The position numbers and the translations under genes are program-made. The notes beneath the pieces are model-generated. The model did no database searches, was not told where the DNA came from, and saw nothing but the letters and a program-made list of their open reading frames with translations. From a virus, in the IMG/VR virus record IMGVR_UViG_3300047564_002155, positions 32,001 to 96,000 of that record: a DNA stretch of 64,000 nucleotides. One strand, given 5' to 3'. Shown here one piece after another: positions 31,874-62,831 of the stretch. Within the stretch, counting starts at the first letter, position 1; every line of letters begins with the position of its first letter.

Positions 31874-32514
31874 TGAAACAATTATTAGTTGATACTACTG
31901 TATTCCAAATTACACCTCAAATCTTGAAGGAGTCGCAAGACCGCCACGGAAGATTTTTGGTTACAGGTGTATTGCAGAGAGCAAACGCTAAAAACCAAAA
32001 TGGTAGAGTATATCCAAGAAACATTCTTGAAAGAGAAGTTGAAAAATACAAGGGTAGGGAAATCAAAGAAAACCGAGCATATGGCGAACTTGACCATCCG
32101 GAATCATCGGTAATTGAATTGAAAAACACATCGCACGTTGTTCGTGATGTGTGGTGGAATGGTGATGATGTAGTTGGTGCTGTTGAAATCTTAAACACAC
32201 CTGCTGGCAAAATCTTACAAGAGTTAATCAAAGCAGAATGTACGGTTGGTATCTCATCAAGAGGTATGGGTTCCGTGAGTCAGATTAAAGAAGATGGAAC
32301 TGTTGCTGTTGAAGGTGACTTTGAGTTGATTTGTTGGGACTTTGTTTCTAACCCATCAACGCATGGAGCTTTTATGAGACCTACAAATGAAGGGGTTATC
32401 AAAGAGTCAGTTCAAAGAAAACAAACTAATTATAATAAGGTTAATACACTTATGAGAGAAATCATCTGCGAAGTGGGTGGATATTGTGAGTGTGATTTTG
32501 GAGATATAAAATGA
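31873..32514 (+). CDS. gp21: Prohead protease (T4 gp21-like)
   Basis: 'GVLQRANAKNQNGRVYP', 'GELDHP', 'GISSRGMGS', 'WDFVSNPSTHGA'. Confidence 0.95.
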   Translation: MKQLLVDTTVFQITPQILKESQDRHGRFLVTGVLQRANAKNQNGRVYPRNILEREVEKYKGREIKENRAYGELDHPESSVIELKNTSHVVRDVWWNGDDVVGAVEILNTPAGKILQELIKAECTVGISSRGMGSVSQIKEDGTVAVEGDFELICWDFVSNPSTHGAFMRPTNEGVIKESVQRKQTNYNKVNTLMREIICEVGGYCECDFGDIK

Positions 32515-42465: not shown

Positions 42466-44958
42466 ATGCCAACAACTGCAGGTGATATATATGTAAGAAG
42501 TGGTACCCAGGGCGCATTTACCGAGGTAAAATACGTTCAGGGCGGATGGCTTACTGTTGATTCTTCATCTACTATGGTGAATATAGATGTATCAAGACTA
42601 CAACAAGGCCAATTGGTATTTGTTGAATCTCAAAATAAATTTTATAAAGCTACTGTTATATTAGCGGATTATATAACTATTTTTGACGACTCCGCTTCTT
42701 TTTCAGAGTATAGATTTTTAACATCAAGTATTTCTAATTTTGACAGCGAAGTATCACGTTCAGCTGCTATTGCGGGGTTTGGAAGTGGTGGTGGAAGTGT
42801 ACCTGCTGGGACTGTATCATCATCTGCTCAAACGATTGCAAATTTAAATGGAACCAACATTTTATCGGGTTCTATTCTTACATCAAGTGTAACTAATTTT
42901 GATACTGAAGTTTCTCGTTCAGCCGCAGCAAATGGATTTGGAGCATCAACTCTTCCAAGTGGTGTTGTATCATCATCTGCTCAAGTAAGTTATGTGTTGA
43001 TTTCAAACGTGCCATCGGGTATTGTTTCAAGTTCAACCCAAACTATTGCAAACTTAAATGGTAGTGGTATTCTTTCAGGTTCTTCAAGTGTGCCTGCTGG
43101 AACGATTAGTGGTTCTCAACAAATTACTGATTTAGGTTTTATCAACCAAAGTCAAACATCTTCAATGTCGGTTGCAACTGCTTCATATGTAAGTCCTACA
43201 TTTATTTCAGCATCTGCTGCCGCAAGTGGCTTTGGGTCTTCAACCCTTCCAAGTGGTGTGGTTTCTTCATCCGCTCAGGTTGTTGCAGCTCTACCTGTTG
43301 GAACAATAAGTTCATCGGCTCAGATTTTACCAATCTTAACCTCAAGTGTAACCAATTTTGATACTGAAGTATCACGCTCAGCAGCAACGGCTGGATTTGG
43401 AAGTTCTACTCTTCCAAGTGGTGTTGTATCATCATCCGCTCAAGTTATTAGTAACTTAAATGGCAGTGGTATTCTTTCAGGTTCCATTCCAACTTCAAGC
43501 GTAACCAATTTTGATACCGAAGTTTCTCGTTCTGCTGCTGCAAGTGGCTTTGGAAGTGGTGGTGGAGCTTCTGTTCCGGCCGGTACTATTTCATCATCTG
43601 CTCAAGTAATTGCATCTTTGCCGGCTGGAACTGTATCATCATCAGCTCAAATCCTACCAATACTTACTTCAAGTGTAACTAATTTTGATACTGAAGTTTC
43701 AAGGTCTGCTGCAGCTGCAGGATTTGGAAGTGGTGGTGGTTCAACTGATATTTCAGCACTAAACACATTTACATCTTCTATTCAAAGTGAAGTAAACGCT
43801 TTAAAAGCTGCTACAAGTTCTTATGTAACATCTGCTCAAACAAGTTCGTTTGTTACAAATTCTCAAACATCATCGTTTGCTATCAAAGCAGAAATTAGTG
43901 GTGCTTTTACACAAGACTCAAGTTCTATTTCAACTCGTTTAACATCACTTGAAGGAACGAGCGGTGGTGATGTAACTGCTTTAAATTTGTTTACTTCATC
44001 AATTCAAACGCAGGTTAATAACTTAACCGCTGAAACGAGTTCATATCTAACATCAGCTGATACATCATCATTCATCACAATTAGTCAGACATCTTCAATG
44101 TCGGTGGCTACTGCTTCGTATGTAAGTCCTACATTTATTTCAGCATCAGCTGCTGCAAGTGGATTTGGCTCCACAACTCTTCCAAGTGGTGTGGTTTCTT
44201 CATCTACTCAAATAGTAGCAGCCCTACCTGCTGGAACTGTATCATCATCCGCACAAACGGTTGCAAATTTGGTTGGTCAAAATGTTGTAGTAAATTCTAT
44301 TACTGCTCAACAATATGTGGTATCATCATCGGTATCATTCATTACCACTTCATTCTCAAGTGGTTCAACCGCATTTGGTGATAGTTTATCTGATACACAC
44401 ACATTTACAGGTTCAGTATCAATCACAGGGTCATTAAATATTGGTGGTCCATTTACTGTAAACAATGAAAACTTAAATGTATCAAGTGGTTCTATTATCT
44501 TAACAAATAGTAGTAGTATTGTTGTACTTGATAGTGGTATTATTAGTGGTACTTTTGTTGGTAATTTAAATTACAACTACATCACTAACTTACCTAATTT
44601 GATTTCATCATCAGCTCAAATTGCTGCTCTTGGGGCAGGTTTATTATCAAGTTCGGCTCAAATTGCGAGTGATATTAGTGGAGCATTTACTTCACTATCA
44701 TCTTCGTTTGCAAGTAGAATTACCGCTCTTGAAGGGGCTGGTGGTGGTAGTGGAATTTTCACACTAACTGGTTCATTCTACTCAACAACAAACAATGTTA
44801 AAATTACAGGTTCACTATCAGTTGGTAGTGGTTCATTTAAATCATTTGAAGTTGACTCAAATGGATTTGTGGTGTTAGGTGATATGACTAAAGACTTGAA
44901 TATCGCTCCGATTGGAACAATTGCTTACTCCGGAAGTAACTTTTACCTAATATCTTAA
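42466..44958 (+). CDS. SSSAQ-repeat fibre protein
   Basis: Repeats of 'TSSVTNFDTEVSRSAAAAGFG' and '(V/I)SSSAQ'; 'SGSTAFGDSLSDTHTFTGS' motif shared with 46378. Confidence 0.65.
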   Translation: MPTTAGDIYVRSGTQGAFTEVKYVQGGWLTVDSSSTMVNIDVSRLQQGQLVFVESQNKFYKATVILADYITIFDDSASFSEYRFLTSSISNFDSEVSRSAAIAGFGSGGGSVPAGTVSSSAQTIANLNGTNILSGSILTSSVTNFDTEVSRSAAANGFGASTLPSGVVSSSAQVSYVLISNVPSGIVSSSTQTIANLNGSGILSGSSSVPAGTISGSQQITDLGFINQSQTSSMSVATASYVSPTFISASAAASGFGSSTLPSGVVSSSAQVVAALPVGTISSSAQILPILTSSVTNFDTEVSRSAATAGFGSSTLPSGVVSSSAQVISNLNGSGILSGSIPTSSVTNFDTEVSRSAAASGFGSGGGASVPAGTISSSAQVIASLPAGTVSSSAQILPILTSSVTNFDTEVSRSAAAAGFGSGGGSTDISALNTFTSSIQSEVNALKAATSSYVTSAQTSSFVTNSQTSSFAIKAEISGAFTQDSSSISTRLTSLEGTSGGDVTALNLFTSSIQTQVNNLTAETSSYLTSADTSSFITISQTSSMSVATASYVSPTFISASAAASGFGSTTLPSGVVSSSTQIVAALPAGTVSSSAQTVANLVGQNVVVNSITAQQYVVSSSVSFITTSFSSGSTAFGDSLSDTHTFTGSVSITGSLNIGGPFTVNNENLNVSSGSIILTNSSSIVVLDSGIISGTFVGNLNYNYITNLPNLISSSAQIAALGAGLLSSSAQIASDISGAFTSLSSSFASRITALEGAGGGSGIFTLTGSFYSTTNNVKITGSLSVGSGSFKSFEVDSNGFVVLGDMTKDLNIAPIGTIAYSGSNFYLIS

Positions 44959-44967
44959 TATTTATTC

Positions 44968-44985
44968 TTGATATCAAAAAAGTTT
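44968..44985. repeat. 18-bp direct repeat, copy 1 (TTGATATCAAAAAAGTTT)
   Basis: Identical to 46047-46064; contains the palindrome TTGATATCAA. Confidence 0.8.
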
Positions 44986-45018
44986 CGTTAATGCATTAAC
45001 AAAAATGGAGAACTAAAA

Positions 45019-46044
45019 ATGCCAAATATTCAAAAAATTGTAGTTAGTGGAAGTAGTATTTCACAACTATTCAACGATGCAGGATACCTTGCATCTGCTG
45101 GTAATGGAATCGTATCATCATCAGCTCAAGTATTAGCTAATTTAAATGCGTCGGGTATTGTATCATCATCTGCCCAAATTGACGATTTATTTAATATTGA
45201 CGGTCTGATTTCATCATCAGCTCAAATCGCTGCTCTTGGTGCTGGAATTGTATCATCATCCACTCAATTAGAGGGTGCATTTGATACTCGTTATTTAAAC
45301 ACAACGGGTGATAGTGTTGTATCATCATCCGCTCAAATCAATGTAACAAACGCTATTGTAGACGCTGCTGCTGGTATTGTTTACACTAAATTAAACTTTG
45401 ATGGTTCGGGATTCCTATCATCATCTGGTCAGCTTGGCGTAAACGATACTCAAATTTCATTATCAGGTTCTAATGGTGTAAGTATTAATGGTGGAACTGA
45501 TGGTTCATTTACACTTAACCAATCTACTACGGCATCATTTAATATCGCTATTCCAAGTGGTGTAGTATCTGCTTCAGCATTCTCATCACCATCACAAGGT
45601 ACGGTTCGTGCTACAATCAATGGTGTTCAAACCGATGTGGATACCGGTCTTCAAACAGGCGACTCACCACAATTCACAAACTTAACCTTAACTGGTGATT
45701 TATTTGTAGGTGGTGATACAGTCACAATAAACACGGCAAACTTAAACATTGAAGATAAGTTTATCTTATTAAACTCCGGTTCAGGTGGTTCTTCTGCTGA
45801 AGGTGGTATTATTGTTGAGTCATCTGGTTCAGTTGGAACGGGTAACGCATTCTACTATGACGCATCAGATGCTCGTTGGGCGTTAAAAGCTGGATTAAGT
45901 GCTACAAACACCGGCGCTGTAACCGCTGAAGCGTTTATGAGTGTTGCTGTTGTTGATACTTTTGCTAACGCAACTGGTAGTGCTTACTACAAAACAGGTA
46001 ACATTATTATTGATGGTCAAGACATTTACATTGTAACTGTATAA
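45019..46044 (+). CDS. SSSAQ-repeat fibre protein
   Basis: N-terminus paralogous to 46378 (MPN..K.VVSGS..SQL.ND); 'NTANLNIEDKFILLN' fibre motif. Confidence 0.65.
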   Translation: MPNIQKIVVSGSSISQLFNDAGYLASAGNGIVSSSAQVLANLNASGIVSSSAQIDDLFNIDGLISSSAQIAALGAGIVSSSTQLEGAFDTRYLNTTGDSVVSSSAQINVTNAIVDAAAGIVYTKLNFDGSGFLSSSGQLGVNDTQISLSGSNGVSINGGTDGSFTLNQSTTASFNIAIPSGVVSASAFSSPSQGTVRATINGVQTDVDTGLQTGDSPQFTNLTLTGDLFVGGDTVTINTANLNIEDKFILLNSGSGGSSAEGGIIVESSGSVGTGNAFYYDASDARWALKAGLSATNTGAVTAEAFMSVAVVDTFANATGSAYYKTGNIIIDGQDIYIVTV

Positions 46045-46046
46045 TA

Positions 46047-46064
46047 TTGATATCAAAAAAGTTT
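46047..46064. repeat. 18-bp direct repeat, copy 2
   Basis: Identical to 44968-44985. Confidence 0.8.
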
Positions 46065-46070
46065 TGATTT

Positions 46071-46238
46071 ATGGCAAAAAACGATTCTCCAAAAGAAGTG
46101 GAACTCAAGCTCTCAACACGAGAGCTTGAGGCCCTTCTAATCGGATTGGGTGAGGTTCCCTTTAAAGGTAAAGACATTGAGTTTGTCTACCGACTCGCAG
46201 TCAAACTTCAAGAAGGAATCCTAAAGTCAAAATCCTAA
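46071..46238 (+). CDS. Small 55-aa ORF not in the ORF track (MAKNDSPKEVELKLSTRELEALLIGL...), possible fibre chaperone
   Basis: Clean ORF between a fibre gene and a terminator; chaperone role is inferred from position only. Confidence 0.6.
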   Translation: MAKNDSPKEVELKLSTRELEALLIGLGEVPFKGKDIEFVYRLAVKLQEGILKSKS

Positions 46239-46242
46239 AAAG

Positions 46243-46268
46243 AAACCCTCCCAAGTGGAGGGTTTTTT
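46243..46268 (+). terminator. Rho-independent terminator
   Basis: AAACCCTCC-CAAGT-GGAGGGTTT followed by Ts. Confidence 0.85.
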
Positions 46269-46313
46269 ATTTGATATCTATCTATTTATTTAAGATTATA
46301 ATCATAAAAATCT

Positions 46314-46360
46314 TGGTTGTTGGCCCGAAAGGGAAGTGGGCACGAAAGTGTTACCAACCA
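46314..46360 (+). ncRNA. Putative structured cis-regulatory RNA leader (multibranch, two GAAA tetraloops)
   Basis: TGGTTG/CAACCA closing stem, CCC-GAAA-GGG and GGCAC-GAAA-GTGTT hairpins; GC-rich island between a promoter-like motif and ATG 46378. Confidence 0.5.
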
Positions 46361-46377
46361 CAATAAAGGATGGGGAT

Positions 46378-48540
46378 ATGCCAAACTGGAAAAAAGTCGT
46401 AGTTAGTGGGAGTAATGTCTCACAACTTTTAAATGATGGTGTTTATTTAAGAACCACGGGTGATGGGGTTATTTCATCATCAGCTCAAATTGCGGGTGAA
46501 ATTAGTGGTGCGTTTACTGCAACATCCGCTTCTTTAAGTGGTAGAATTGATAATTTAAGTTCATCATCTACTGTGTTTGCAAGTACGGGTTCAAACACTT
46601 TCAACGGAGACCAAACTTTTAGTGGTTCTTTATTACCCGACACGACTGAAGTATTTAGTTTAGGTTCGCCTGACAAAGTATGGGAAAGTCTTTATGTAGA
46701 TGGGCAATCCATTTATATGAGAGATACTGCAACAAACACATTTGTTACAATGTCGGCTAATTCAGGTGTCCTTACCTTTAACAACACAAGATTAAATGTT
46801 CCACTTGGAATTACATCATCCAATTTAATACTAACTTCGGTAGTTAATGCTGGAACAAATACAGGTAAATTTCTTGTATTAGACTCTAATGGTAATGTAG
46901 ATTTTAGAACTGAAGTAGAGGTTCGCTCTGATATTGGTGCTCAAAGTTTATCTGCTGGTACATTATCTTCATCCGCACAAATCCAAGCATATGACATTTT
47001 CTTGGAAAAATTGGGTGATAATGTTATTTCATCATCAGCTCAATTAACAACCGAATTTGACACAAGATATCTAAATACAAGTGGTGATGGTGTAATATCA
47101 TCATCCGCTCAAGTTGACCACGATTCAACAACTAACTTTGTAGCAAACGAACACATAGACCACACCACAGTATCTATTTCAGCTGGTAGTGGTTTAAGTG
47201 GTGGTGGAACTATTGCTAGTACACGAACTTTAGCATTAGACACTTCATCTGCTCACTTTACGGATGGTGTAAAAACAAAATTAAATACTGAAGGTGTTAT
47301 TTCATCATCTGCTCAATTAACAGGTACTTTTGATACCCGTTACCTAAACACCACCGGTGATAATGTATTATCTTCATCAGCTCAAATTGCAGGTGAAATT
47401 AGTGGTGCTTTCACCGCTGCATCAGGTGGTTTCTCAACAAGAATTACTTCATTAGAAGCTGCAGGTGGAACTACATTCTCATCTTCGGTTTCTACAAGAT
47501 TAACAAATGTTGAAGGTTACACTCTTGATAATGTAACTGATAATGGTTCATCAACTACCAATGGGATTACAATTGGTGGTTTGACGGTGAATGGTAATGC
47601 TACAATTACAGGTACACTTACCGCACAACAATTTAATACTGAATTTGTATCTTCATCAATTATTTTTGAGTCCGGCTCAACAAAATTTGGTGACTCCGTA
47701 GATGATATTCATTCATTCACAGGTTCAGTAAAGTTAAATACCCAAACTGCTGCTACAACGGATACTGATAAGTTCTTGGTGTTTGATACCGGTGGTGAAA
47801 TTAAATATAGAACTGGTGCAGAAGTTTTAAGTGATATAAATCCTGGTGGTTTAATCTCATCATCTGCTCAACTTACAACCGAGTTTGATACTCGTTACCT
47901 AAATACAACAGGCGATGGAGTTATTTCATCATCAGCCCAATTAACATCCACTTTTGATACCCGTTACTTAAACACCACCGGTGATAATGTATTATCTTCA
48001 TCAGCTCAAATTGCAAGTGAAATTAGTGGTGCTTTTACTGGCGCTGGGTTTGTTGATGTTGGTAGTGCTGCGAGTGCGTCAAGGTTAGCTGTATGGCAAG
48101 ACGGAAACACTATCAGAGGGTATGAGAATATTACAATACACAATAATTCGGTAATTGAGGCTGGTTTATATTTAAGTGGCGGTTCATCCGGAATTGGTCG
48201 TAAAGTATTGCATGGTTCTGGTGGTGGTACTGGTGCTGGACAATTTTCAATATTAAATTGTGGAAACCCGGCGGATTCAATCGGAGCGCATGTTTCATAC
48301 ACAGTGCATGTCTACGGAAATAGAAATGCCGGCTTTAAAGCCGGAACTATTTTAGCAGTGTGGGATACTTCGGGTGGTAATATTCAATATTACGAAACCT
48401 CTACAAGCACATATGGTACATTACCAACCCACCAAGTTTATCCTTTTTTGACTGGAGGGTCTGTATATATTGTTTTAGCAAATAATAGTGGAACCTCATT
48501 GTATGTAACCGCTAACGCTGATATAATGACAACAATATAA
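46378..48540 (+). CDS. SSSAQ-repeat fibre protein
   Basis: Start at ATG 46378 (MPNWKKVVVSGS, paralogous to the start of 45019) rather than GTG 46336; repeated 'FDTRYLNTTGD..ISSSAQ'. Confidence 0.7.
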   Translation: MPNWKKVVVSGSNVSQLLNDGVYLRTTGDGVISSSAQIAGEISGAFTATSASLSGRIDNLSSSSTVFASTGSNTFNGDQTFSGSLLPDTTEVFSLGSPDKVWESLYVDGQSIYMRDTATNTFVTMSANSGVLTFNNTRLNVPLGITSSNLILTSVVNAGTNTGKFLVLDSNGNVDFRTEVEVRSDIGAQSLSAGTLSSSAQIQAYDIFLEKLGDNVISSSAQLTTEFDTRYLNTSGDGVISSSAQVDHDSTTNFVANEHIDHTTVSISAGSGLSGGGTIASTRTLALDTSSAHFTDGVKTKLNTEGVISSSAQLTGTFDTRYLNTTGDNVLSSSAQIAGEISGAFTAASGGFSTRITSLEAAGGTTFSSSVSTRLTNVEGYTLDNVTDNGSSTTNGITIGGLTVNGNATITGTLTAQQFNTEFVSSSIIFESGSTKFGDSVDDIHSFTGSVKLNTQTAATTDTDKFLVFDTGGEIKYRTGAEVLSDINPGGLISSSAQLTTEFDTRYLNTTGDGVISSSAQLTSTFDTRYLNTTGDNVLSSSAQIASEISGAFTGAGFVDVGSAASASRLAVWQDGNTIRGYENITIHNNSVIEAGLYLSGGSSGIGRKVLHGSGGGTGAGQFSILNCGNPADSIGAHVSYTVHVYGNRNAGFKAGTILAVWDTSGGNIQYYETSTSTYGTLPTHQVYPFLTGGSVYIVLANNSGTSLYVTANADIMTTI

Positions 48541-49219: not shown

Positions 49220-52200
49220 ATGAGTTTGATACACGCATTACACGAAGATACTTTGTTAGAGGTTAATGGAATACTAACCCCTATCAAGGATATCCAAATT
49301 GGCGATGTAGTAAAAAGTTACAATACTGAAGCCCAAACTATCGGTGAAAGTAAGGTTGTTTCTAAACACATCGGTTTTGATAGTGAATACTACCACATAA
49401 ATTTTAGTGATGGTTCACAATTAAAAACATCCATCAAATCACTTTTCTATTCACAAGATGGTGAATGGTTAACTCCTTTAGATGTATACCACTTAAAAAA
49501 ATCACTCCTTAACGGATTAGAAATCACCTCACTAAAATTAGTTGATGGTGATATTTCTTTTATTAGTATTGAAGTAGAACCCGACCACAACTATTTTGTA
49601 GGTAATCTATTAGTACACAACACAGGTCCTACGGGTCCTACGGGTCCTACTGGAGCTCAAGGTCCTAAAGGTCCCACCGGCTCTACCGGTTCAACGGGCC
49701 CTACCGGCGGTACTGGTCCTCAAGGTCCTATTGGCCCTAAAGGTCCAACCGGACCCGCTTCATCACCTCAAGGTGCTCAAGGTCCAAAAGGTCCTATGGG
49801 TAACTCACCACAAGGTCCAACGGGTCCTACTGGCCCAACAGGTCCTACCGGCCCAACTGGTCCTACTGGAGCTCAAGGTCCCAAAGGACCAACGGGTCCA
49901 ACTGGTCCTACTGGTCCACAAGGTCCAACAGGTCCAACGGGACCAACCGGCCCTACGGGGTCTTCACCACAAGGTCCTGCTGGTCCAAAGGGACCTACGG
50001 GTCCTACTGGCGCAACTGGCCCAACGGGTCCTACTGGTCCTACTGGCGCTAAAGGACCACAAGGTCCTACGGGTCCAACCGGTGGCACGGGTCCAAAAGG
50101 ACCACAAGGTCCTACGGGTCCAACAGGTCCAACAGGTCCTACTGGCCCTACTGGTGCAAAAGGACCACAAGGTCCTACTGGCCCACAAGGTAACCAAGGG
50201 CCAGTTGGCCCATCACCTCAAGGAGCTCAAGGTCCTAATGGACCAACAGGTCCAACCGGCCCTAAAGGACCAACGGGACCAACAGGCCCCACTGGTGCAA
50301 AAGGTCCACAAGGAGGAACAGGTCCTACTGGCCCAACCGGTGGTCAAGGTGCTACTGGCGCTCAAGGTTTCCAAGGACCAACCGGTCCTACCGGACCTAC
50401 TGGCGCAAAGGGTCCACAAGGACCCACTGGTCCACAAGGTAACCAAGGTCCTTCAGGTTCTTCACCCCAAGGTGCTCAAGGTCCAAAAGGACCAACCGGT
50501 CCAACTGGCGCTCAAGGTCCTGTTGGACCAACGGGTCCTACTGGACCAAAAGGACCTCAAGGTCCCACAGGTCCCACAGGCCCAACAGGAAACCAAGGTC
50601 CGATTGGACCAAAGGGTCCGCAGGGGCCAACGGGTGGAACTGGCCCTCAAGGTGGAGTAGGTCCTCAAGGTCCAAAGGGCGACCAAGGTAATTCACCACA
50701 AGGTGCACAAGGTCCGATAGGACCACAAGGAGCTAAAGGACCTGCGGGTTCTTCACCTAAAGGAGACCAAGGTCCACAAGGTGCTCAAGGTCCTAAAGGT
50801 CCCCAAGGAGCTAACCCACAAGGAGACCAAGGACCACAAGGTCCACAAGGTCCTAAAGGACCAACCGGGTCTTCACCTCAAGGAGCTCAAGGTCCTAAAG
50901 GACCACAAGGTCCACAAGGTAACCAAGGACCCGCACCTCAAGGTGACCAAGGTCCTAAAGGCCCACAAGGTCCACAAGGTAATCAAGGACCCGCACCTCA
51001 AGGTGACCAAGGTCCTAAAGGTCCACAAGGTCCACAAGGACAACAAGGACCTGCGCCACAAGGTGACCAAGGTCCTAAAGGTCCACAAGGTGCTCAAGGT
51101 CCGATGGGTAATTCACCTCAAGGACCACAAGGTGCAAAAGGACCACAAGGTGATAAAGGTAATACGGGCTCTTCGCCCAAAGGTGACCAAGGACCACAAG
51201 GCGCTCAAGGTCCTAAAGGTCCTCAAGGAGCTAACCCACAAGGTGACCAAGGACCACAAGGTCCACAAGGTCCTAAAGGTCCTACTGGCTCTTCACCGCA
51301 AGGTGCTCAAGGTCCTAAAGGTCCACAAGGTCCACAAGGTCAACAAGGACCCGCACCTCAAGGTGACCAAGGTCCTAAAGGCCCACAAGGTCCACAAGGT
51401 AATCAAGGACCCGCACCTCAAGGTGACCAAGGTCCTAAAGGACCACAAGGACCACAAGGACAACAAGGTCCAGCGCCTCAAGGTGACCAAGGTCCTAAAG
51501 GTCCACAAGGGCCAAAGGGTGACCAAGGTAATTCACCTCAAGGTGCTCAAGGTCCAACAGGTGCTCAAGGTGATAAAGGTAATACAGGGTCTTCACCTAA
51601 AGGAGACCAAGGTCCACAAGGTGCTCAAGGTCCTAAAGGCCCTCAAGGAGCTAACCCACAAGGTGACCAAGGTCCACAAGGCCCACAAGGTCCTAAAGGT
51701 CCTACTGGGTCTTCACCACAAGGCGCTCAAGGTCCTAAAGGTCCTCAAGGTGATAAAGGTCCAACTGGGTCTTCACCGCAAGGTGCTCAAGGTCCTAAAG
51801 GACCACAAGGTCCACAAGGTAACCAAGGTCCTGCTCCTCAAGGTGACCAAGGTCCTAAAGGTCCTCAAGGCGCTCAAGGTAATCAAGGACCGCAAGGTCC
51901 AATTGGACCTCAAGGTCCTAAAGGCCCTCAAGGTCCTAAAGGTCCTCAAGGAGACAAGGGTCCTCAAGGAGCTGCTCCTCAAGGTGACCAAGGTCCACAG
52001 GGACCAAAGGGTGACCAAGGTAATTCACCTCAAGGCGCTCAAGGTCCTAAAGGTCCTCAAGGAGACAAAGGACCACAGGGTGCGGCACCTCAAGGTGCTC
52101 AAGGTCCTAAAGGTCCACAGGGGGATAAAGGACCACAAGGTTCAATAGGTAACCAAGGAGACCAAGGTCCACAAGGTCCGCAAGGACCAAAGGGTGATGC

Positions 52201-53311
52201 TGGAACCTCACCACAAGGTGCTCAAGGTCCTAAAGGTCCTCAAGGAGACAAAGGTCCTCAAGGAGCTTCACCACAAGGAGCTCAAGGTCCACAAGGTGTT
52301 AAAGGACCACAAGGTCCTAAAGGAACTTCACCTCAAGGTGACCAAGGTCCACAAGGTGCTCAAGGTCCTAAAGGTCCTCAAGGTGATTCACCACAAGGAG
52401 ACCAAGGACCACAAGGTCCTAAAGGAGACCAAGGTAATTCACCTCAAGGTGCTCAAGGTCCTATTGGGGCTCAAGGTCCTAAAGGTCCTCAAGGAGACAA
52501 AGGTCCTCAAGGTGCAAAAGGTCCTCAAGGAGACAAAGGTCCTCAAGGAGACAAGGGTCCTCAAGGAGCTAATCCACAAGGTGACCAAGGTCCACAAGGT
52601 GAAAAAGGACCACAGGGGGATAAGGGAACCTCACCACAAGGTGCTCAAGGTCCTAAAGGTCCTCAAGGAGACAAAGGTCCTCAAGGAGCTTCACCACAAG
52701 GAGCGCAAGGCCCACAAGGTGTTAAAGGACCACAAGGTCCTAAAGGAACTTCACCTCAAGGTGACCAAGGTCCACAAGGTGCTCAAGGTCCTAAAGGTCC
52801 TCAAGGTGATTCACCACAAGGAGACCAAGGACCACAAGGTCCTAAAGGAGACCAAGGTAATTCACCTCAAGGTGCTCAAGGTCCTATTGGGGCTCAAGGT
52901 CCTAAAGGTCCTCAAGGAGACAAAGGTCCTCAAGGTGCAAAAGGTCCTCAAGGAGACAAAGGTCCTCAAGGAGACAAGGGTCCTCAAGGAGCTAATCCAC
53001 AAGGTGACCAAGGTCCTCAAGGACCACAAGGTGCTCAAGGTCCTAAAGGAACGTCACCACAAGGTCCACAAGGAGCTAAAGGTCCTCAAGGTCCTAAAGG
53101 AACTTCACCTCAAGGTGCTCAAGGACCACAAGGTCCTCAAGGAGACAAAGGTCCTCAAGGAGACAAAGGTCAAAAGGGAGAGGCTGCTCTTGGAACTTTA
53201 ATTAGTGGTGTATCACCAGGATTAACTTGGAACGGGTCTCGTGGATTTTTAAGTTTCAATAATGGTGGTGCTACATATGTAATTCATATGTATGTAAGTG
53301 GTTCATTCTAA
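49220..53311 (+). CDS. Hint-domain collagen-like protein, chain 1
   Basis: Residues ~6-134 Hint-like ([14 protein letters not shown]...[18 protein letters not shown]|T); ~1186-residue Gly-X-Y region 49625-53182; short C-terminal domain ending Y.SGSF. Confidence 0.9.
49625..53182 (+). repeat. Gly-X-Y repeats with 420-bp and 423-bp super-repeats
   Basis: Blocks recur at ~50761/51181/51601 (420 bp) and 52202/52625 (423 bp). Confidence 0.85.
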
Positions 53312-53334: not shown

Positions 53335-56300
53335 ATGAGTGTTAAAAACGGACAATTAGTCAGATTATATGATGGAAGTGAAACCGCTATTGAAAATCTC
53401 ATTAGTGGTTCTTCCATTGTAGCTGGTGTTGCTTTACCTGGACTTGGATTGGGTGAAACTGATTATAAAACTTGGTCTTCTACTGATATATCATCCACGA
53501 CATTACAACCCGCAAATGTTGTAACAAGAAATACTTTCATCAATTCAGCTATTGAAAAAATTGAATTTAACGATGGTAATCTTGTCGTATCACCAATGCA
53601 AGAAATCCTTGTAAAAGGTGGTGATAATGTATATCTTTTTAAAAGAGCAAAAGATGTAGTCTTAAATTCAGACCATTTAGTAAAATGGAATGGTTCTTCA
53701 CTTGTAGATGAACTAATTACTGAAGCTTATACCATAGACCCGGAAGACGCTTCAAACCTAAACATTGAAGACCTTGATGTTTACCTTGTAAATGGGTATG
53801 TAGTTCACAACGCAGGGACTTCTTATTTTACATCAGATTGTTTAACTTCAGATAATCTTGGTTGTGGTAACTGGCCTAATTTTGATCCTGGCTCATACTC
53901 CAACACTTGTTATTATGTATCGGGTGCTCCTGGAACTGATTGTGCTTATACTTGTGCCACTTGTGAAGAGATTGAATTTGATGCAAACTCCGATGGTGAA
54001 CCTTGTGGTTCTAATAATGAGTGTGACGCAGATACATCACAAGGTCCAACAGGTCCAACAGGTCCTCAAGGTGCAGTCGGTCCTAAAGGTGATAATGGGC
54101 CAACTGGTGGAACGGGCCCGACCGGTCCTCAAGGTGCTGTGGGTCCAATCGGCCCTACGGGTGATACTCCTGACGCACTAACGGGTCCTCAAGGTCCCGT
54201 AGGTCCAAAAGGACCATCGGGTAATTTGGGACCACAAGGTCCCACGGGACCAACAGGTCCAACGGGTGGACAAGGTGGGCAAGGTTCTCAAGGTGCTGTG
54301 GGGCCTGTGGGAGATTCTCCAACCGGAGGACAAGGTAACCAAGGACCTGTTGGTCCTACTGGCCCAACGGGGCCCGCAGGAGCATTAGGTCCGGTAGGAC
54401 CTATCGGACCAACCGGCGACCAAGGACCCACCGGACCAACCGGCCCAACGGGCGCTTCACCCACTGGCCCAGGTGGTGACCAAGGTCCAACGGGCGGAAC
54501 GGGTCCAACCGGTCCTGGTGGAGACCAAGGTCCAACAGGCCCAACAGGTGCAACGGGTGCTTCACCCACTGGTGGTGGTGGTGACCAAGGTCCTGTGGGA
54601 CCTCAAGGGCCAAAAGGACCTTCGGGTAATTTAGGAGCTCAAGGACCTGTTGGCCCAACCGGCCCAACTGGTCCTGTTGGACCTACTGGCGATACAGGTG
54701 CCTCACCAACCGGTCCAGGCGGTGACCAAGGACCCACCGGCCCTACGGGTCCTACGGGCCCCACTGGCGATAGAGGTCCACAAGGTCCTATGGGACCAAC
54801 GGGTGCTTCCCCAACAGGTGGTGGTGGAGACCAAGGACCAACAGGCGCTCAAGGACCTGTTGGTGGAACTCCAGGTCCTGGTGCAGCGGGTCCAATAGGA
54901 CCAGGTGGCGACCAAGGTTCACAAGGTCCTCAAGGTCCAATTGGGGCTTCCCCAACAGGTGGTGGTGGAGACCAAGGACCTCAAGGAGGTCAAGGTTCGC
55001 AAGGACCTACTGGAGATATTGGTGTTGGTGGCGACCAAGGTCCAACTGGCGGACAAGGTAATCAAGGTCCACAAGGATTACAAGGTCCAAAAGGACCTTC
55101 GGGTAATTTAGGTCCTCAAGGACCAATAGGACCTACCGGAGCTGGTGGACCTGCTGGGGATAATGCTCCTAAAGGCGCTCAAGGAGACCAAGGAAATACA
55201 GGTCCTATTGGACCCACCGGTGATGCTGGCCCCAAAGGAGCTCAAGGTGCTCAAGGAAATCAAGGAAATCAAGGTCCAACTGGTGATGCTGCTTTAACAG
55301 GTCCTCAAGGACCAATTGGAGGTGGGGGTGACCAAGGTCCTCAAGGACCTGCAGGAGCAAAAGGTGCTCAAGGTCCAGTTGGTGGTCAAGGAGACCAAGG
55401 CCCTCAAGGACCCGCTGGTCCTAAAGGTGCTCAAGGACCAATTGGAGGTGGAGGTAACCAAGGTCCTCAAGGACCTGCTGGCGGTAAGGGTGCTCAAGGT
55501 CCAATTGGCGGTCAAGGAGACCAAGGTCCTATGGGACCTTCGGGTAATTTAGGCGCTCAAGGACCAATGGGTCCTAAAGGTGACCAAGGTCCAACTGGTG
55601 ATGCAGCCCCAAAAGGTGCTCAAGGAGACCAAGGAAATACAGGTCCTATTGGACCCACCGGTGATGCTGGCCCCAAAGGAGCTCAAGGTGCTCAAGGAAA
55701 TCAAGGTAACCAAGGTCCAACAGGTGATGCTGCTTTAACAGGTCCTCAAGGACCTGTGGGTGTGAAGGGTGACCAAGGTCCTCAAGGACCTGCTGGAGGT
55801 AAAGGCTCTCAAGGTCCTATTGGTGGACAAGGAGACCAAGGTCCTCAAGGGCCTGCTGGGGCTAAAGGTGCCCAAGGTCCAACAGGCGCTGGTGGTGACC
55901 AAGGTCCTCAAGGACCTGCTGGTGGTAAAGGTGCTCAAGGTCCTATTGGTGGGCAAGGCGACCAAGGTCCTAAAGGACCATCGGGTAATTTAGGCCCCCA
56001 AGGTCCAACGGGTGTAAAAGGTAATCAAGGTCCAACCGGCGATGCTGCTGCTAAAGGTGCTCAAGGGGACCAAGGAAATACAGGTCCTATTGGTCCAACT
56101 GGCGATGCTGGTCCTAAAGGTGCTCAAGGTGCTCAAGGTAACCAAGGTAACCAAGGACCAACCGGCGATGCTGCATTAACAGGCGCTCAAGGTCCTATGG
56201 GACCTAAAGGTGACCAGGGTCCAGTGGGTACACCCGCCGAAACCGGGGCTCAAGGTCCTGTTGGCGTAAAAGGTGACCAAGGTCCTCAAGGGCCTGCTGG

Positions 56301-57918
56301 GGCTAAAGGTGCTCAAGGACCTGTTGGTGGACAAGGTGACCAAGGTCCTCAAGGACCACAAAGTGTAGCTACCGAAGGTGGTGATGGATATACTGGTGGA
56401 CCACAAGGTGCTGTTGGTCCAACGGGTGACCAAGGACCTAAAGGTGATGTGGGTCAAAAAGGTGATGATGGTCCTAAAGGGGCTCAAGGTCCTCAAGGAT
56501 TACAAGGTCCTAAAGGTCCTTCGGGAAATTTAGGAGCTCAAGGTCCTGTTGGTGTAAAGGGTGATACTGGTCAAAAAGGTGATGATGGTCCTAAAGGAGA
56601 CCAAGGACCAACTGGTGTTAAGGGAGACCAAGGACCTGCAGGAGAACAAGGACCTAAAGGACCTCAAGGAGCTCAAGGTAATCAGGGTAGACAAGGACCA
56701 ACCGGAGATGCTGCTCTAACAGGCGCTGCTGGTCCAATTGGACCCAAAGGTGACCAAGGTCAAAAAGGTGATGATGGTCCTAAAGGCGCTCAAGGTCCTC
56801 AAGGTAGAGTAGGCCCGCAAGGAGACCAAGGTGATGCTTTTGACGCTTTAACACCACAAGGACCTCAAGGAAATATAGGACCTGTTGGAGTTAAAGGTGA
56901 TGCTGGTCCTAAAGGCGCTCAAGGTCCTCAAGGACTTCAAGGTCAAAAAGGACCATCTGGAAACACGGGCGCTCAAGGACCTCAAGGACCACAAAGTGAT
57001 AAGGGTTCTACGATTGGACCTAAAGGGGACCAAGGATTTTCAGGCGATTATGAAGACACTGCGCCTAAAGGTGACCAAGGTCAAAAGGGTGACCAGGGTC
57101 AAAAGGGGGCTGATGGTCCAAAGGGTGCTCAAGGGGCTCAAGGATTTCAAGGTCCCAAAGGTGACCAAGGACCCACCAATTTAACAGGCCCACAAGGTGC
57201 TGTTGGTGTAAAAGGTGATGTTGGTGTAAAAGGTGATGATGGTCCTAAAGGCGCTCAAGGTCCTCAAGGTAGAGTAGGTCCGCAAGGTGACCAAGGTGAT
57301 GCTTTTGACGCTTTAACCCCACAAGGACCTCAAGGAAATGTAGGACCTGTTGGAGTTAAAGGTGATGCTGGTCCCAAAGGAGCTCAAGGTCCTCAAGGAT
57401 TACAAGGTCCAAAAGGACCGTCTGGAAACGCCGGTGCTCAAGGACCTCAAGGACCACAAAGTGATAAGGGTTCTACCATCGGTCCTAAAGGAGACCAAGG
57501 ATTTTCAGGCGATTATGAAGACACTGCACCCAAAGGCGATGTTGGACCTCAAGGTGACCAAGGTCAAAAGGGGGCTGATGGTCCTAAAGGAGCTCAAGGT
57601 GCCGCGGGAAATCAAGGACCACAAGGTGGCCAAGGAACATCCGCATTATCGGGCGCTGAAGGTGCTGTTGGACCACAAGGTGAACAAGGACCAACGGGAG
57701 ATTCTCCAACTGCTGAACAAAATGGACCACAAGGAGCACAAGGTATAGCTCCGGGTCCTAAAGGTGATTTTGGTCAAAAAGGTGAAAAGGGAAGTCAACT
57801 TGAAGGTGGTTACTTTGAGTGGAGTGATACTGATAATAAACTATACTTTAAAGAGTATGGTTGGACTGCCGGTGATAGATTATTTGTTGTAGAATTATAC
57901 AGGTCAGGTTCATTTTAA
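53335..57918 (+). CDS. Hint-domain collagen-like protein, chain 2 (with 8-Cys domain)
   Basis: Residues 2-159 Hint-like ([21 protein letters not shown]...[19 protein letters not shown]|A); 8-Cys segment; ~1252-residue Gly-X-Y region 54043-57798; C-terminus LYRSGSF. Confidence 0.9.
54043..57798 (+). repeat. Gly-X-Y repeats with 441-bp and 465-bp super-repeats
   Basis: Blocks recur at 55180/55621/56062 (441 bp) and 56767/57232 (465 bp). Confidence 0.85.
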
Positions 57919-57966: not shown

Positions 57967-58572
57967 ATGGAAAAGAAATTTATATTCAATCAAGACCCAT
58001 CACGATTTTCAGCTGACCATACCAATTATTATTGGTTTCAAAATGGATTTACTGCTGAAGAATTGGCTACGATTGAACAAATGACTTCCAATTTACCATT
58101 TGAAGCCGCGGGCGTTGGTGAGTTGGATAAATCACGAGTAGAAAGCGAATATCGTAAATCATCAATTAAATGGTGTCCTCAAAACGAAGAGTGGGAATGG
58201 GTTTACGATAAGCTTGGAACTATGATTTCTGAAGCAAACAACAATATGTGGAAATTTGATTTGACTCATATGAGAGAACAAATCCAATATACTGAATACT
58301 ACGAAGGTGGTGGTCAGTATGACTGGCATATGGATTGTGGTATTGGTATTCAAGCCCAACGCAAAGTTTCGGTTACTGTTCAATTATCACAACCTGATGA
58401 ATACGAGGGTGGTGATTTACAATTTATGTTAGGTGCTGGTCAGATTTGGGCTCCACGAGTTCAAGGGGCTGCTGTTATTTTCCCATCATTTTTCTTACAC
58501 CGAGTTACGCCTGTAACCAAGGGGACTCGTAAGTCATTTGTTCTTTGGGTTGGTGGAGAACCATATAGATAA
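57967..58572 (+). CDS. 2OG-Fe(II) oxygenase (prolyl-4-hydroxylase/PKHD-like)
   Basis: 'YDWHMD', 'RKVSVTVQLS..DEYEGGDL', 'IFPSFFLHRVTPVTKGTRKSFVLW' give the HxD...H...R motif. Confidence 0.9.
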   Translation: MEKKFIFNQDPSRFSADHTNYYWFQNGFTAEELATIEQMTSNLPFEAAGVGELDKSRVESEYRKSSIKWCPQNEEWEWVYDKLGTMISEANNNMWKFDLTHMREQIQYTEYYEGGGQYDWHMDCGIGIQAQRKVSVTVQLSQPDEYEGGDLQFMLGAGQIWAPRVQGAAVIFPSFFLHRVTPVTKGTRKSFVLWVGGEPYR

Positions 58573-58575
58573 TCT

Positions 58576-59874
58576 ATGAGAAAAACTAAATTACCATCTG
58601 CATTAGTTTATGGGTGGGATAAGTTTGGTGAATTCTCCATCCCATCTACACTATCAGAACACGAAGGACTTGTAGAAGATGTAGTGATTTTCTCTTGCGA
58701 AGACCATTTTAATTTTTATGTTGATTTTTCAAAATATCAGCCAGATGTAATTATTACATTTGGTGATAAAAATCAATATGAATCTATTTTAGAAGCTTCT
58801 GATGAAAACCTTGTAAATACAAAGTGGACTCACATTGATGAAATTTTAAGTGATGAGGAGCTTGCAAATAAAGTAGATGAATTGTCTACCTATTGGAGTT
58901 GTGGTTCAAATCAAAATGTTTTTGGTTCTAAAGACCTACCATTCTTTTCAGCATTTACCGGAACTTACAAAACCGGTGATAGAATTTTCAGAACCTATAA
59001 TGGTCTAAAAAATCAAACTTATAAAAATTGGGAATGGGTTGTTATTGATGACTCGCCTGAAGATGATTTTGATACTTGGAATAAACTACAAGAAATCGCA
59101 TCCCGAGACCATAGAGTAAAAATTCATAGAATTACACCAAATACGGGCGGTAATGTTGGTGAGGTTAAACACCGAGCTGCTATGTTATGTAATGGTGATT
59201 GGTTATTGGAGTATGACCATGATGATGTGATTGCATCAACATACTTTGAAGAGTGTGTCAAAGCATCAAAGCAATATCCTGATGCTGGATTTATTTTTAC
59301 CGGATGTGCTGAACTTTACGAAGATGGTAAACACAAACAATATGGTCCAATTGACCCAACGGGTTATGGTAGATATGGTTTTAATAACTACACTTGGGCT
59401 TATTCGTGGCACGAATGGGTGGAAATTGATGGTAAAAAATATATTGGAGGATTTGCTCCAAGTATAAATCCAAAAACTATTAGATATAATATGGGTATGC
59501 CAAATCACGCACGAATGTGGCATAGAGATGTGTATCATAAAGTCAGAGGTCACAATAGATATATTTCCGTAGCAGATGATTTTGAACTGATTGTAAAAAC
59601 ATTCCTAACAACACGAATGTTAAAAATTGATAAAATCCTATATATGCAATGGAATAATTATTCAAGCACTGTTGATATGAACTTAACTGATATTAATAGA
59701 AGAGCACGAATAATTAGAAATTACTATGATAAAGCTATTCACGAGCGAATCCTTGAACTTGGAAAAGAAGATTGGGATTGGGATGAAGAAACTCAAAAAT
59801 GCCATCACGCTTGGTGGATAGATAGAAGTAGATATTTTGAAAAAGAACAAGTTTTAAATTACACGATAAAATAA
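58576..59874 (+). CDS. GT2-family (GT-A) glycosyltransferase with N-terminal extension
   Basis: 'NQTYKNWEWVVIDDSP', 'GDWLLEYDHDD' (DxD), 'ADDFEL'. Confidence 0.85.
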   Translation: MRKTKLPSALVYGWDKFGEFSIPSTLSEHEGLVEDVVIFSCEDHFNFYVDFSKYQPDVIITFGDKNQYESILEASDENLVNTKWTHIDEILSDEELANKVDELSTYWSCGSNQNVFGSKDLPFFSAFTGTYKTGDRIFRTYNGLKNQTYKNWEWVVIDDSPEDDFDTWNKLQEIASRDHRVKIHRITPNTGGNVGEVKHRAAMLCNGDWLLEYDHDDVIASTYFEECVKASKQYPDAGFIFTGCAELYEDGKHKQYGPIDPTGYGRYGFNNYTWAYSWHEWVEIDGKKYIGGFAPSINPKTIRYNMGMPNHARMWHRDVYHKVRGHNRYISVADDFELIVKTFLTTRMLKIDKILYMQWNNYSSTVDMNLTDINRRARIIRNYYDKAIHERILELGKEDWDWDEETQKCHHAWWIDRSRYFEKEQVLNYTIK

Positions 59875-59882
59875 GGAACAAT

Positions 59883-61595
59883 ATGAAAGTTTTGTTTGTA
59901 GTTGGATATCAGAAAACCCCATTTAATCCTTTTGTTTGGATTAAAGAAGGAATTGGTGGTTCTGAATACGCTGTTATAAAATTAGCTCATCAAATGTCAA
60001 AGCAGGGTGATGAGGTTGTTGTCACAGGTCAAGTTGTTCCGTGTGAAGTTGAGGGTATTAAGTATATACCATATGAATCCCTTGGAACAAATCAACATTA
60101 TGATGTTGTAATTGCTACAAATTATATTCACTATATTAATGAACTTGACTCACGAGAAATAACTTTTGACAAATCTTATTTTTGGATTCATAATAATGAA
60201 TATTACGCATATTGGAATGGTCAAATATTAGAGGATTTTGGAAAAGAACATTTACAAAATTCAAGGATGACTAATGTGATTGCAGTATCGGATTACTCCG
60301 CAAAAATACTTGAAGAAAAGTATACTGAAATGGTGGGAAAGGTCAGAGTTATTCCAAACGCTATTGACCCAACTGACTGGAATGGTATCCGATTTGATAA
60401 CAAACGAAAAAACAAATTTGTATATACATCCGCTGCTGATAGAGGTTTAAAAAACCTACTTGAAATCTGGCCGCAGATTCGTGACGCCAGACCCGAAGCG
60501 ACTCTTTGGGTAGCAAGTCCACCATACGCATTAGATTGGTATGAAGACTATAAGGGATTCTATGATGGTGTTCATTTTGTGGATAATCTACCACCAAGAG
60601 AATTATATGAGTTGATTGCTTCATCGGAGTATTGGGTATATCCATCACAATACGATGAAACCTATTGTATTACAGCATTGGAAATGATGATGGGTGAGGT
60701 TTCAATCATAACAACCGATACCGGAAATTTAGCAAGTATCATTCCAGCGCGAGGTGCTGTGGTATCTTCTGAAAGTGATGTTGAAACTTTAAAAAAACAA
60801 ATTTTAGAAAAACTTGAATTTGTAGAATCGGATGCTGCTTTTAGAAAGTTTTCAAAAGAAAATGCTAAATCTTTTGTTCTAAAACAAACTTGGGAAAATG
60901 TAGAAAAAATTTGGAGAAATCTTATGAACGAAACACAACCCAACCGACAAGAACAAACTGATATGTTAGCTTTACATCCTGAATTATATTCTTACAAATA
61001 TGACAAAATTGGATGGTTGGAACGATTTGTAACCTATGATGCGAGAATTAGAGAATGGGATTTGATTTCAGATGAACAATTTGATGGATGTTTTACATTT
61101 CCATTATTTACTGAAGAATTTTGTAAGATGATTCGTGAAGAGGCAGAACATTCAAAAAAATGGACTTACAAAAGACACGAATATTATCCAACCACGGATA
61201 TGCTATTATCTGAATTGGGATTGAATGAAATTTACTATGAAGTTCTCCAAACCTATGTAATGCAATTTATGATTCACAAATTTGGTTTAGAAGGTAGGGG
61301 ATGGGATTCTTTAAATTCTGAAAACTTTTTAGCAAGATACACACCAGACACTCAAGGTCATCTTTCAATACACCACGACTCTTCTGATTTAACTTGTTTA
61401 GTCCAACTATCAGACCTTGATGAATATGAAGGTGGTGGAACTTGGTTTTGGAGACAAAAAAAATTAATAAAAGGTGGAATCGGATATTGTACGGTACATC
61501 CTGGAAATATAACTCACAAGCACGGAGCAAGACCTGTAAGTAAGGGAAGTCGTTATATTATTGTATCGTTTATGAAAAATTTGGAAAGATATTAA
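59883..61595 (+). CDS. GT4 (GT-B) glycosyltransferase fused to PLOD-like lysyl-hydroxylase domain
   Basis: 'GIGGSE', 'IPNAID', '[15 protein letters not shown]' (EX7E); C-terminal 'FPLFTEEFC...YPTTDM...[21 protein letters not shown]...YEGGGT...[25 protein letters not shown]'. Confidence 0.88.
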   Translation: [570 protein letters not shown]

Positions 61596-61634: not shown

Positions 61635-62831
61635 ATGGCAATTCAAATTCCAATATGGCCAGGTAGTAGTTCATTTTCTTCAATATCTGCGTCTTTTTAC
61701 ACAGATTCATCCACAACTAAACCAACACCATTTGGTTTTTTTGATAGTGATTCTACGTTTAAGTCAGATGCTGATAATGTAGCCAATTGGTGCGCAAACC
61801 GATTGGGTTATCCCATTGTTGATATTGAATTACAAGATATAAACTTTTTTGCTTGTTTTGAAGAAGCCGCTAACGAATATTCTTCACAAATCAATCAGTA
61901 TAGAGCAAAAGAAAATCTTTTGTCTCTTCAAGGTTCAAGTTTAAACAACACACTTGCTAGTAAGCAACTAAATAGTAATATGCAGGGTGTAGTAAATCTT
62001 GCGAAAGATTACGGAACCGAAGCAAAAAGTGGTGGTAGATTAACACACTATACCGGTTCATTCACTATGGTAGAGGGTCAACAAATCTACAATCTAAATG
62101 ATAGTAGTGTTGTATCACTTGAATCAGGTTCAGTTACAAATGGACTTACCATTCGTAAAGTATTCCACGAAGCACCGCCTGCGATTGTAAGATACTTTGA
62201 CCCATTCGTTGGAACAGGTATGGGTTCTCAACAAATGATGGATACTTTTGGGTGGGGTAACTATTCACCGGGTGTATCATTTTTAATGCAACCAATGTAT
62301 GATGACTTACTTCGTTTACAAGCAATTGAGTTTAACGACCAAATTCGTAAATCTCAATATTCATTTCAATTAGTTAATAATCGTATTAAAATATTCCCAC
62401 TTCCGGTTTCAGGTGATGGTGGTGTAAAAATATACTTTGAATATACATTAGATACTGAAGCAAATAATCCAATTATAGCATCAAATGTGGTTAGTGATTT
62501 TTCTAATGCTCCGTTTGAAAGATTAACATATACTTCAATCAATTCAGCTGGTAGACAATGGATTACCAAGTATACTCTTGCATTAGCTAAAGAAGTTCTT
62601 GGTGCGGTAAGAGCAAAGTTCTCCGCTATTCCAATTCCGGGAGCAGACATCACATTGGATGGTGGTGACCTTCGTAACGAAGCTGCTGCAGAAAAAGAAG
62701 CACTCCTAACTCAATTAAAAGAAATGTTAGAAGCTACATCTAAAAAAGCATTGATGGAAGCCAAACGAGATGAGGCTGAATTCCTTGAGTCTACACTTGC
62801 AAGAATTCCAAGACCAATTTATATAGGATAA
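61635..62831 (+). CDS. Neck protein (T4 gp13-like)
   Basis: 'RLGYPIVDIELQD', 'WITKYTLALAKEVLG..RAKF..IPIPG..ITLDG..L..EA..E...L'. Confidence 0.8.
   Translation: MAIQIPIWPGSSSFSSISASFYTDSSTTKPTPFGFFDSDSTFKSDADNVANWCANRLGYPIVDIELQDINFFACFEEAANEYSSQINQYRAKENLLSLQGSSLNNTLASKQLNSNMQGVVNLAKDYGTEAKSGGRLTHYTGSFTMVEGQQIYNLNDSSVVSLESGSVTNGLTIRKVFHEAPPAIVRYFDPFVGTGMGSQQMMDTFGWGNYSPGVSFLMQPMYDDLLRLQAIEFNDQIRKSQYSFQLVNNRIKIFPLPVSGDGGVKIYFEYTLDTEANNPIIASNVVSDFSNAPFERLTYTSINSAGRQWITKYTLALAKEVLGAVRAKFSAIPIPGADITLDGGDLRNEAAAEKEALLTQLKEMLEATSKKALMEAKRDEAEFLESTLARIPRPIYIG

Follow-up and report, generated by a model that had tools for sequence, protein, structure and literature searches.

The GT4-lysyl hydroxylase fusion gene

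We analyzed a 64,000-nucleotide stretch of viral DNA (the window; positions 32,001 to 96,000 of IMG/VR virus record IMGVR_UViG_3300047564_002155) and one gene within it, an open reading frame (ORF) whose 570-residue product, here called P0001, joins a GT4-type glycosyltransferase (GT) domain to a lysyl hydroxylase (LH) domain of the type found in human LH3/PLOD3 and mimivirus L230. The source record spans 168 kb with an estimated completeness of 94%. Its major capsid protein shared 57% identity with that of Microcystis phage Mel-JY01 and 53% with that of Flavobacterium phage immuto, and these identities identify the source as a distant (far-T4-like) marine myovirus. Judged from its sequence, P0001 is probably a bifunctional collagen-modifying enzyme of this phage. 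The gene has the following features:

59883..61595, + strand: GT4-LH fusion gene (P0001), 570 amino acids, a single ORF without interruption
59883..60932, + strand: GT4-type GT-B glycosyltransferase domain, residues 1-350 (Pfam, Foldseek, invariant columns)
60657-60659 and 60681-60683, + strand: EX7E motif residues E259 and E267, in the C-terminal Rossmann domain; invariant in homologues
60933..60965, + strand: disordered inter-domain linker, residues 351-361 (pLDDT <50 at residues 352-361)
60966..61592, + strand: PLOD/L230-type LH domain, residues 362-570 (alignments, invariance, fold)
61371-61373, 61377-61379 and 61521-61523, + strand: predicted Fe ligands H497, D499 and H547 (alignment to L230)
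61338-61340 and 61551-61553, + strand: predicted 2-oxoglutarate (2OG)-binding residues Y486 and R557 (alignment to L230)

A first-pass annotation had recognized a PLOD/LH3-like domain at 60975-61595, which corresponds to residues 365-570 of P0001. HPELY and the remaining motifs that it named were all found in the translation, and HMMER aligned them column for column with the LH3 motifs.

The C-terminal domain is related to LH3 and L230

A phmmer search of all PDB sequences revealed that residues 359-564 of P0001 match human LH3/PLOD3 (E=4e-25) and mimivirus L230 (E=5.6e-22); the matches at E<=0.01 included neither a prolyl hydroxylase nor any further 2OG oxygenase. The alignment to LH3 extended over about 205 residues and included motifs outside the generic HxD..H core, as the first-pass annotation had claimed. 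Analysis with Pfam identified a match to PF25238, a model of the N-terminal helical part of LH domains, at residues 363-461 (37.4 bits, cut-off 31), and no match of the C-terminal domain to PF13640 at E<=0.01. With no prolyl 4-hydroxylase (P4H) among the PDB matches and no PF13640, grouping with generic bacterial P4Hc oxygenases, the outcome named at the outset as counting against a PLOD-like domain, was not seen.

An AlphaFold2 model of P0001, built on 25 homologues (mean pLDDT 86.9), predicted a double-stranded beta-helix fold for the LH domain that superposes on the solved LH domain of L230 (6ax6_B; TMt 0.86, root-mean-square deviation 2.4 A, 205 columns, 30% identity). The nearest Atlas clusters of the domain were named procollagen-lysine 5-dioxygenase, and stand-alone phage homologues carried the automatic cluster name 'procollagen-lysine 5-dioxygenase family protein'. 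Because LH3 and L230 are its only solved sequence relatives, and given the predicted fold and the Atlas cluster names, the reading of the C-terminal domain as specifically PLOD/L230-type and not generic P4Hc is supported by sequence and model. A Pfam match carries the name 'OGFOD2-like'; an OGFOD2-type identity was rejected in a comparison with the solved and Atlas neighbours, all of which were lysyl hydroxylases.

We also examined the residues expected at the active site. H497, D499, H547, R557 and Y486 aligned with H825, D827, H877, R887 and Y814 of L230, respectively, and were invariant in 25 homologues, down to 41% identity. In L230, H825, D827 and H877 are the Fe(II) ligands, Y814 and R887 bind 2OG, and loss of the Fe- and 2OG-binding residues abolishes activity (PMC5802723). 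L230 forms a dimer at whose interface L873 inserts into an aromatic pocket of Y798, Y801 and Y831 (PMC5802723); in P0001 the invariant I543 aligned with L873, and F467 with Y798. A complex prediction for two copies of the LH domain (residues 362-570) gave a score of 0.01, which carries no verdict and was used neither for nor against dimerisation.

The N-terminal domain is a GT4-type glycosyltransferase

Residues 1-350 gave three Pfam matches, all over their cut-offs: PF13439 (Glyco_transf_4, 30.2 bits), PF00534 (Glycos_transf_1, 43.4 bits) and PF13692 (Glyco_trans_1_4, 45.4 bits). Foldseek comparison of the modelled GT-B fold revealed resemblance to the retaining GT4 enzymes PimA, MshA, BshA, WaaG and glycogen synthase (TMt 0.57-0.69). 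Together with the invariant E259 and E267 of the EX7E motif, these matches bear out the earlier description of the partner as a GT-B (GT4) domain; further invariant residues were G23, G26 and H103. From its family membership, the GT4 domain is predicted to be a retaining enzyme. No match to the PLOD GT-A domain (PF25342) was identified in P0001 with Pfam, in a search in which true PLOD-like proteins do match it, and the accessory domain of the PLOD/LH3 architecture is likewise missing from P0001.

LH domains are combined with several glycosyltransferase types

An exhaustive HMMER search with residues 355-570 returned 1951 cluster representatives at E<=1e-3, 82 of them at E<=1e-30. The LH domain occurred alone and in the architectures GT25-LH, GT4-LH, GT4-GT25-LH, PLOD_GT-LH and GT25-PLOD_GT-LH, and two of the proteins (P0308 and P0270) matched full-length LH3 at about 1e-102 to 1e-106. 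In an unrooted maximum-likelihood tree of 77 LH domains, the LH domain of P0001 fell in a 98/93 clade of 16 rows (12 GT4-LH, 2 GT4-GT25-LH and 2 GT25-LH), itself nested in a 99/89 clade of 30 rows that were mostly GT4-GT25-LH. Most PLOD-GT-linked LH domains lay across a 97/86 branch. The GT4-only state requires at least two changes on starred branches of this tree, from which the direction, GT25 loss or GT25 insertion, is not readable. Profile search and phylogeny, among the checks proposed in the first-pass annotation, agree with its assignment: LH3 and L230 are the sole PDB sequence relatives of the domain, and the tree places it in a clade of LH domains linked to GT4 and GT25.

COLGALT1, which galactosylates animal collagen, belongs to family GT25. 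Relatives of about 790-860 residues had the domain order GT4, GT25, LH, and one of these (P0054) matched P0001 at 48% identity over residues 1-345 and at 70% over residues 362-569, with about 235 extra residues, the GT25 domain, exactly at the disordered linker of P0001. A separate GT25 of 246-265 residues was found in the genome of the window and in all four related genomes searched:

C1:10396-11136 of the source genome (L038:2397-3137), about 21.6 kb before the window start: stand-alone GT25, 246 amino acids, adjoining a Methyltransf_24 gene

The sole PDB sequence matches of this protein were COLGALT1 chains (E=7e-14), and it shared 32% identity with the inserted GT25 domain of P0054 (E=9e-35). 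The proposal that the fusion arose independently holds in so far as a GT-B GT4 partner and the missing PLOD GT-A separate it from the LH3/L230 event; it does not hold as full independence of the animal toolkit, GT25 being inserted in close relatives and present in trans here.

The fusion gene lies downstream of collagen genes

The genes around the fusion gene lie on the same strand, in the order collagen A, collagen B, oxygenase, GT2, GT4-LH and neck/head-completion gene:

49220..53311, + strand: collagen-like protein A, 1363 amino acids, with an N-terminal HINT-like domain and 367 Gly-X-Y triplets; candidate substrate
53335..57918, + strand: collagen-like protein B, 1527 amino acids, 383 triplets; candidate substrate
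57967..58572, + strand: PHD/P4H/PiuC-type 2OG-Fe(II) oxygenase, 201 amino acids (PF13640, PDB and fold matches)
58576..59874, + strand: GT2 (GT-A) glycosyltransferase, 432 amino acids (PF00535, PDB matches)
61635..62831, + strand: neck/head-completion protein (phrog_211)

The gaps from collagen B through the neck gene measured 3-48 bp. No + strand terminator-like site was identified in the run from the collagen genes to the fusion gene, sigma-70 promoter-like sites were no more frequent than expected by chance, and no enrichment of the T4 late-promoter motif TATAAATA was seen. The case for co-transcription, a prediction, consists of the gene spacing and the missing + strand terminator-like sites. 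The neck protein shared 49% identity with a protein of Mel-JY01 and 37% with the 'putative head completion protein' of Flavobacterium phage immuto, and its gene marks a virion structural context downstream of GT4-LH. Mel-JY01, the nearest cultured relative, carries just three small genes between its capsid and neck genes, where the window (38359-61595) has some 22 kb occupied by genes for fibres, collagens and enzymes; this block is therefore accessory. GC content was about 0.55 locally in the collagen genes, compared with about 0.35 elsewhere.

Lysine placement was examined in the triplet runs of both collagens. This analysis revealed 77 of 89 Lys at Y in collagen A and 52 of 68 in collagen B, a total of 129 at Y and none at X of Gly-X-Y. 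Proline showed the reverse distribution, with 217 at X and 0 at Y in collagen A and 170 at X and 2 at Y in collagen B. The collagens of related loci also had Lys at Y and essentially never at X. For comparison, LH3 and L230 act on X-Lys-Gly in collagen (PMC5802723). Collagens A and B share a related non-collagen tail of about 40 residues that ends in SGSF (53160-53311 and 57790-57918) and was retained in related loci, as seen in BLAST matches to both C-termini; it may be a trimerisation or anchoring element. Alternative-frame ORFs of 132-455 residues, rich in K, V, L and H, were seen within the collagen genes (49731-53201 and 57350-57748) and look like by-products of GC-rich triplet repeats and not genes. 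Upstream of the collagens, at 42466-48540, lie genes for Ser/Ala-rich fibre proteins with 'SSSAQ' repeats.

The 201-residue oxygenase matched PF13640 in Pfam and PiuC/PKHD-type hydroxylases among PDB sequences, and its modelled fold resembled PiuC, a Pseudomonas P4H, PHD2 and the chlorella-virus collagen prolyl hydroxylase vCPH (TM 0.55-0.70). By sequence and predicted fold, it is the operon's generic P4H-like enzyme and the second hydroxylase of the module, in contrast to the PLOD-type domain of P0001. With 387 collagen prolines at X and 2 at Y, classical 4-hydroxylation of Y-position Pro would have no substrate here; the enzyme may act on X-position Pro or on a different residue. The GT2 enzyme had PDB matches to the GT2 domains of heparosan and chondroitin synthases, and about 120 residues at its N-terminus had no family assignment.

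The module is conserved on several phage backbones

A protein database search identified 238 homologues of P0001 at E<=1e-3, mostly of 558-600 residues with the same two domains and from marine metagenomes, on contigs of up to 178 kb. We compared 35 related IMG/VR loci, 21 of which keep upstream sequence. A collagen-like ORF lay upstream of the module in all 21, and in 20 of these the oxygenase directly followed the collagen gene and preceded the fusion gene; in the remaining one (L032) it followed the fusion gene. Every related locus had the oxygenase beside either its collagen gene or its fusion gene. At least three phage backbones carry the module: in the window it precedes the neck gene, in L030 a tail sheath gene, and in L032 it is flanked by portal and virion structural genes. 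GT2 was found in L002-L009, L015 and L016 and was missing from four near-complete relatives that keep GT4-LH; it is an accessory member of the module, present only in some relatives. Given that GT25 occurs fused or separate and that GT2 is missing from the four relatives, the set conserved among these phages comprises the collagen or collagens, the PHD-like oxygenase, GT4-LH and GT25.

Among deposited GenBank phages, a search that may have left out records of the genome itself or of near relatives, the 6-kb locus had no megablast match, and tblastn of P0001 gave only partial single-domain matches below 30% identity. No viral UniProt protein matched both domains in a BFVD fold search.

Proposed pathway and alternatives

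We propose that the LH domain would hydroxylate the Y-position lysines (X-Lys-Gly) of collagens A and B to 5-hydroxylysine (Hyl) in an Fe(II)/2OG-dependent reaction on unfolded chains inside the infected cell. The Hyl hydroxyl would then be O-glycosylated, with the first sugar added by an inverting enzyme, either the phage GT25 encoded elsewhere or the adjacent GT2 or both, and a second, alpha-linked sugar by the retaining GT4 domain fused to LH. Once modified, the chains would assemble into triple-helical virion fibres that bear glycans. Consecutive action at one site is suggested by the fusion of GT4 to LH and by the presence of GT25 in the same chain in relatives. From sequence and models, we consider it likely that Y-position Lys is converted to Hyl and that sugars are then attached to it, the alpha-linked second one probably by GT4. 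About half of this confidence falls on GT4 as the enzyme for the second sugar, and the rest is split between direct glycosylation of Hyl, as by L230, and glycosylation of Thr/Ser, as in BclA. We infer the substrate, the product, the order of the sugars and the location in fibres.

Several points weigh against this pathway. The placement of Lys is compatible with it and not specific, because Lys at Y rather than X is a general habit of collagens. The acceptor of the GT4 domain is not readable from its fold, and both hydroxylase and glycosyltransferase activity are predictions for all members. Some 80 kb separate the fusion gene from the GT25 gene, which could serve another glycan; moreover, because its only solved relatives are COLGALT1, the match cannot tell collagen specificity from GT25 membership. 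The dimer pocket of L230 is only partly kept, with E470 and L503 replacing Y801 and Y831. Two further points, the abundance of Thr at Y and the existence of bacterial homologues beside no collagen gene, belong to the alternatives that they favour.

In the first alternative, the LH domain would hydroxylate collagen Lys as proposed, and GT4 would act independently of Hyl by O-glycosylating Y-position Thr and Ser of the GPT/GPS zones, similar to BclA of Bacillus. The collagens offer such sites, with 66 (A) and 57 (B) Thr at Y, 123 in total, and 28 and 18 Ser. GPT repeats of BclA are glycosylated, and GT4-family enzymes of the GtfA/GtfB type that glycosylate protein Ser/Thr directly are known. We nevertheless regard this alternative as unlikely, since the GT4-LH fusion, and GT4-GT25-LH in relatives, favours consecutive action, and fusions of LH with unrelated GT types (GT25, PLOD-GT and GT4) recur.

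A second possibility is that P0001 acts mainly on a different virion fibre, on a host protein or on a small molecule, and that the gene order reflects no more than co-expression with late genes. Two bacterial GT4-LH homologues (P0088 and P0121; L039:10001-11662 and L040:10001-11635; 41-45% identity), one from a Chromatiales symbiont of Bugula (ex Bugula neritina) and the other on a 3.5-Mb contig, stand singly among housekeeping genes and adjoin no collagen gene, and the Ser/Ala-rich fibre genes upstream of the phage collagens could provide such a substrate. In contrast, the collagen gene upstream in every informative locus, across the different phage backbones, and the action of the closest characterised relatives on collagen make this possibility quite improbable. 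In the Chromatiales genome with the orphan homologue, a different contig carries a gene (L041:1078-1818) for a collagen-like protein whose N-terminus is signal-like and whose GAPGAKGDA repeats have Lys at Y. Finally, P0001 could be a chaperone or scaffold for collagen folding with one or both domains catalytically dead; LH/P4H-family proteins can play chaperone-like roles, which is nothing specific to this case, and the idea is hardly credible, as no homologue, even at 41% identity, departs from P0001 in its Fe, 2OG or EX7E residues.

Building on sequential hydroxylation and glycosylation of collagen Lys, a wider picture can be drawn only tentatively. Tailed phages could possess a complete, bacterium-compatible version of the animal-style pathway from Lys to Hyl, sugar-Hyl and disaccharide-Hyl, in which an unrelated GT-B enzyme of family GT4 took over the retaining second-sugar step of the LH3/R699-type GT-A enzymes of animals and giant viruses, and with which virion collagen fibres of 1,300-1,500 residues would be decorated. 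Recurrent shuffling of LH domains with GT25, PLOD-GT and GT4 in phages might then belong to an evolutionary reservoir for the metazoan toolkit of collagen modification.

Significance and comparison with known systems

Hyl, like its glycosides, counts as a hallmark of animal collagen, with mimivirus as the known viral exception. Full-text literature searches identified no published lysyl hydroxylase or hydroxylysine in a bacteriophage, and a literature search found no paper on Mel-JY01. Bacterial collagen-like proteins were predicted to be hydroxylated by other dioxygenase families in a 2010 comparative-genomics paper (PMC2938197). A 2022 review of prokaryotic collagens described phage collagens as stretches of about 18 residues within capsid proteins, and most bacterial collagen-like proteins as having no proline hydroxylation or glycosylation (PMC8968730). 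What appears to be new here is the GT-B partner, along with the GT4-GT25-LH architecture and the variant in which GT25 is split off. The phage probably carries out hydroxylation and glycosylation on collagen fibres of its own; published examples of such chemistry come only from animals and giant viruses. If this is true, these would be phage fibres of a new type, carrying post-translational decoration and abundant in marine metagenomes (>200 homologues), and would bear on the origin of metazoan collagen-modification enzymes. P0001 is predicted to be a compact, soluble, prokaryote-expressed LH-GT fusion beside candidate substrates of 1,300-1,500 residues; the pair is directly testable in E. coli and might serve for the bacterial production of recombinant collagen that is hydroxylated and glycosylated.

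The glycosyltransferase half resembles PimA, MshA, BshA, WaaG and archaeal glycogen synthase in its GT-B fold, EX7E motif and N-terminal glycine-rich loop; unlike P0001, these enzymes (13-19% identity) have no oxygenase fusion, and the acceptor of P0001 is probably a protein-bound Hyl or glycosyl-Hyl. The metagenomic and phage relatives with GT4-GT25-LH (about 790-860 residues), GT25-LH (about 440-470 residues) and GT25-PLOD_GT-LH (about 900 residues) share the LH clade and the collagen and oxygenase neighbours. Compared with the GT4-GT25-LH proteins, P0001 lacks the GT25 domain, which is a separate, distant gene in its genome, and is adjoined by an extra GT2 gene. Mimivirus L230 (6ax6, 9nev) is similar in its homologous LH domain with identical Fe/2OG residues, in being a viral GT fusion and in coming from a virus with its own collagen-like proteins; it differs in its PLOD-type GT-A and eukaryotic host, whereas P0001 has a GT-B GT4 and belongs to a tailed phage. 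Human LH3/PLOD3 and COLGALT1 (6fxk, 8zgc) correspond to the LH domain of about 205 residues and to the phage-encoded GT25, which is homologous to the COLGALT1 catalytic domain. P0001 differs from LH3 in having neither the PLOD GT-A nor the accessory domains, so that an unrelated GT-B fold would have to act as the retaining GT; the phage enzymes would also work in the bacterial cytoplasm and not the endoplasmic reticulum, on collagens with Pro almost only at X. The human route leads from Lys to Hyl, Gal-Hyl and Glc-Gal-Hyl, and the predicted logic in the phage is the same, with a hydroxylase, an inverting GT and a retaining GT.

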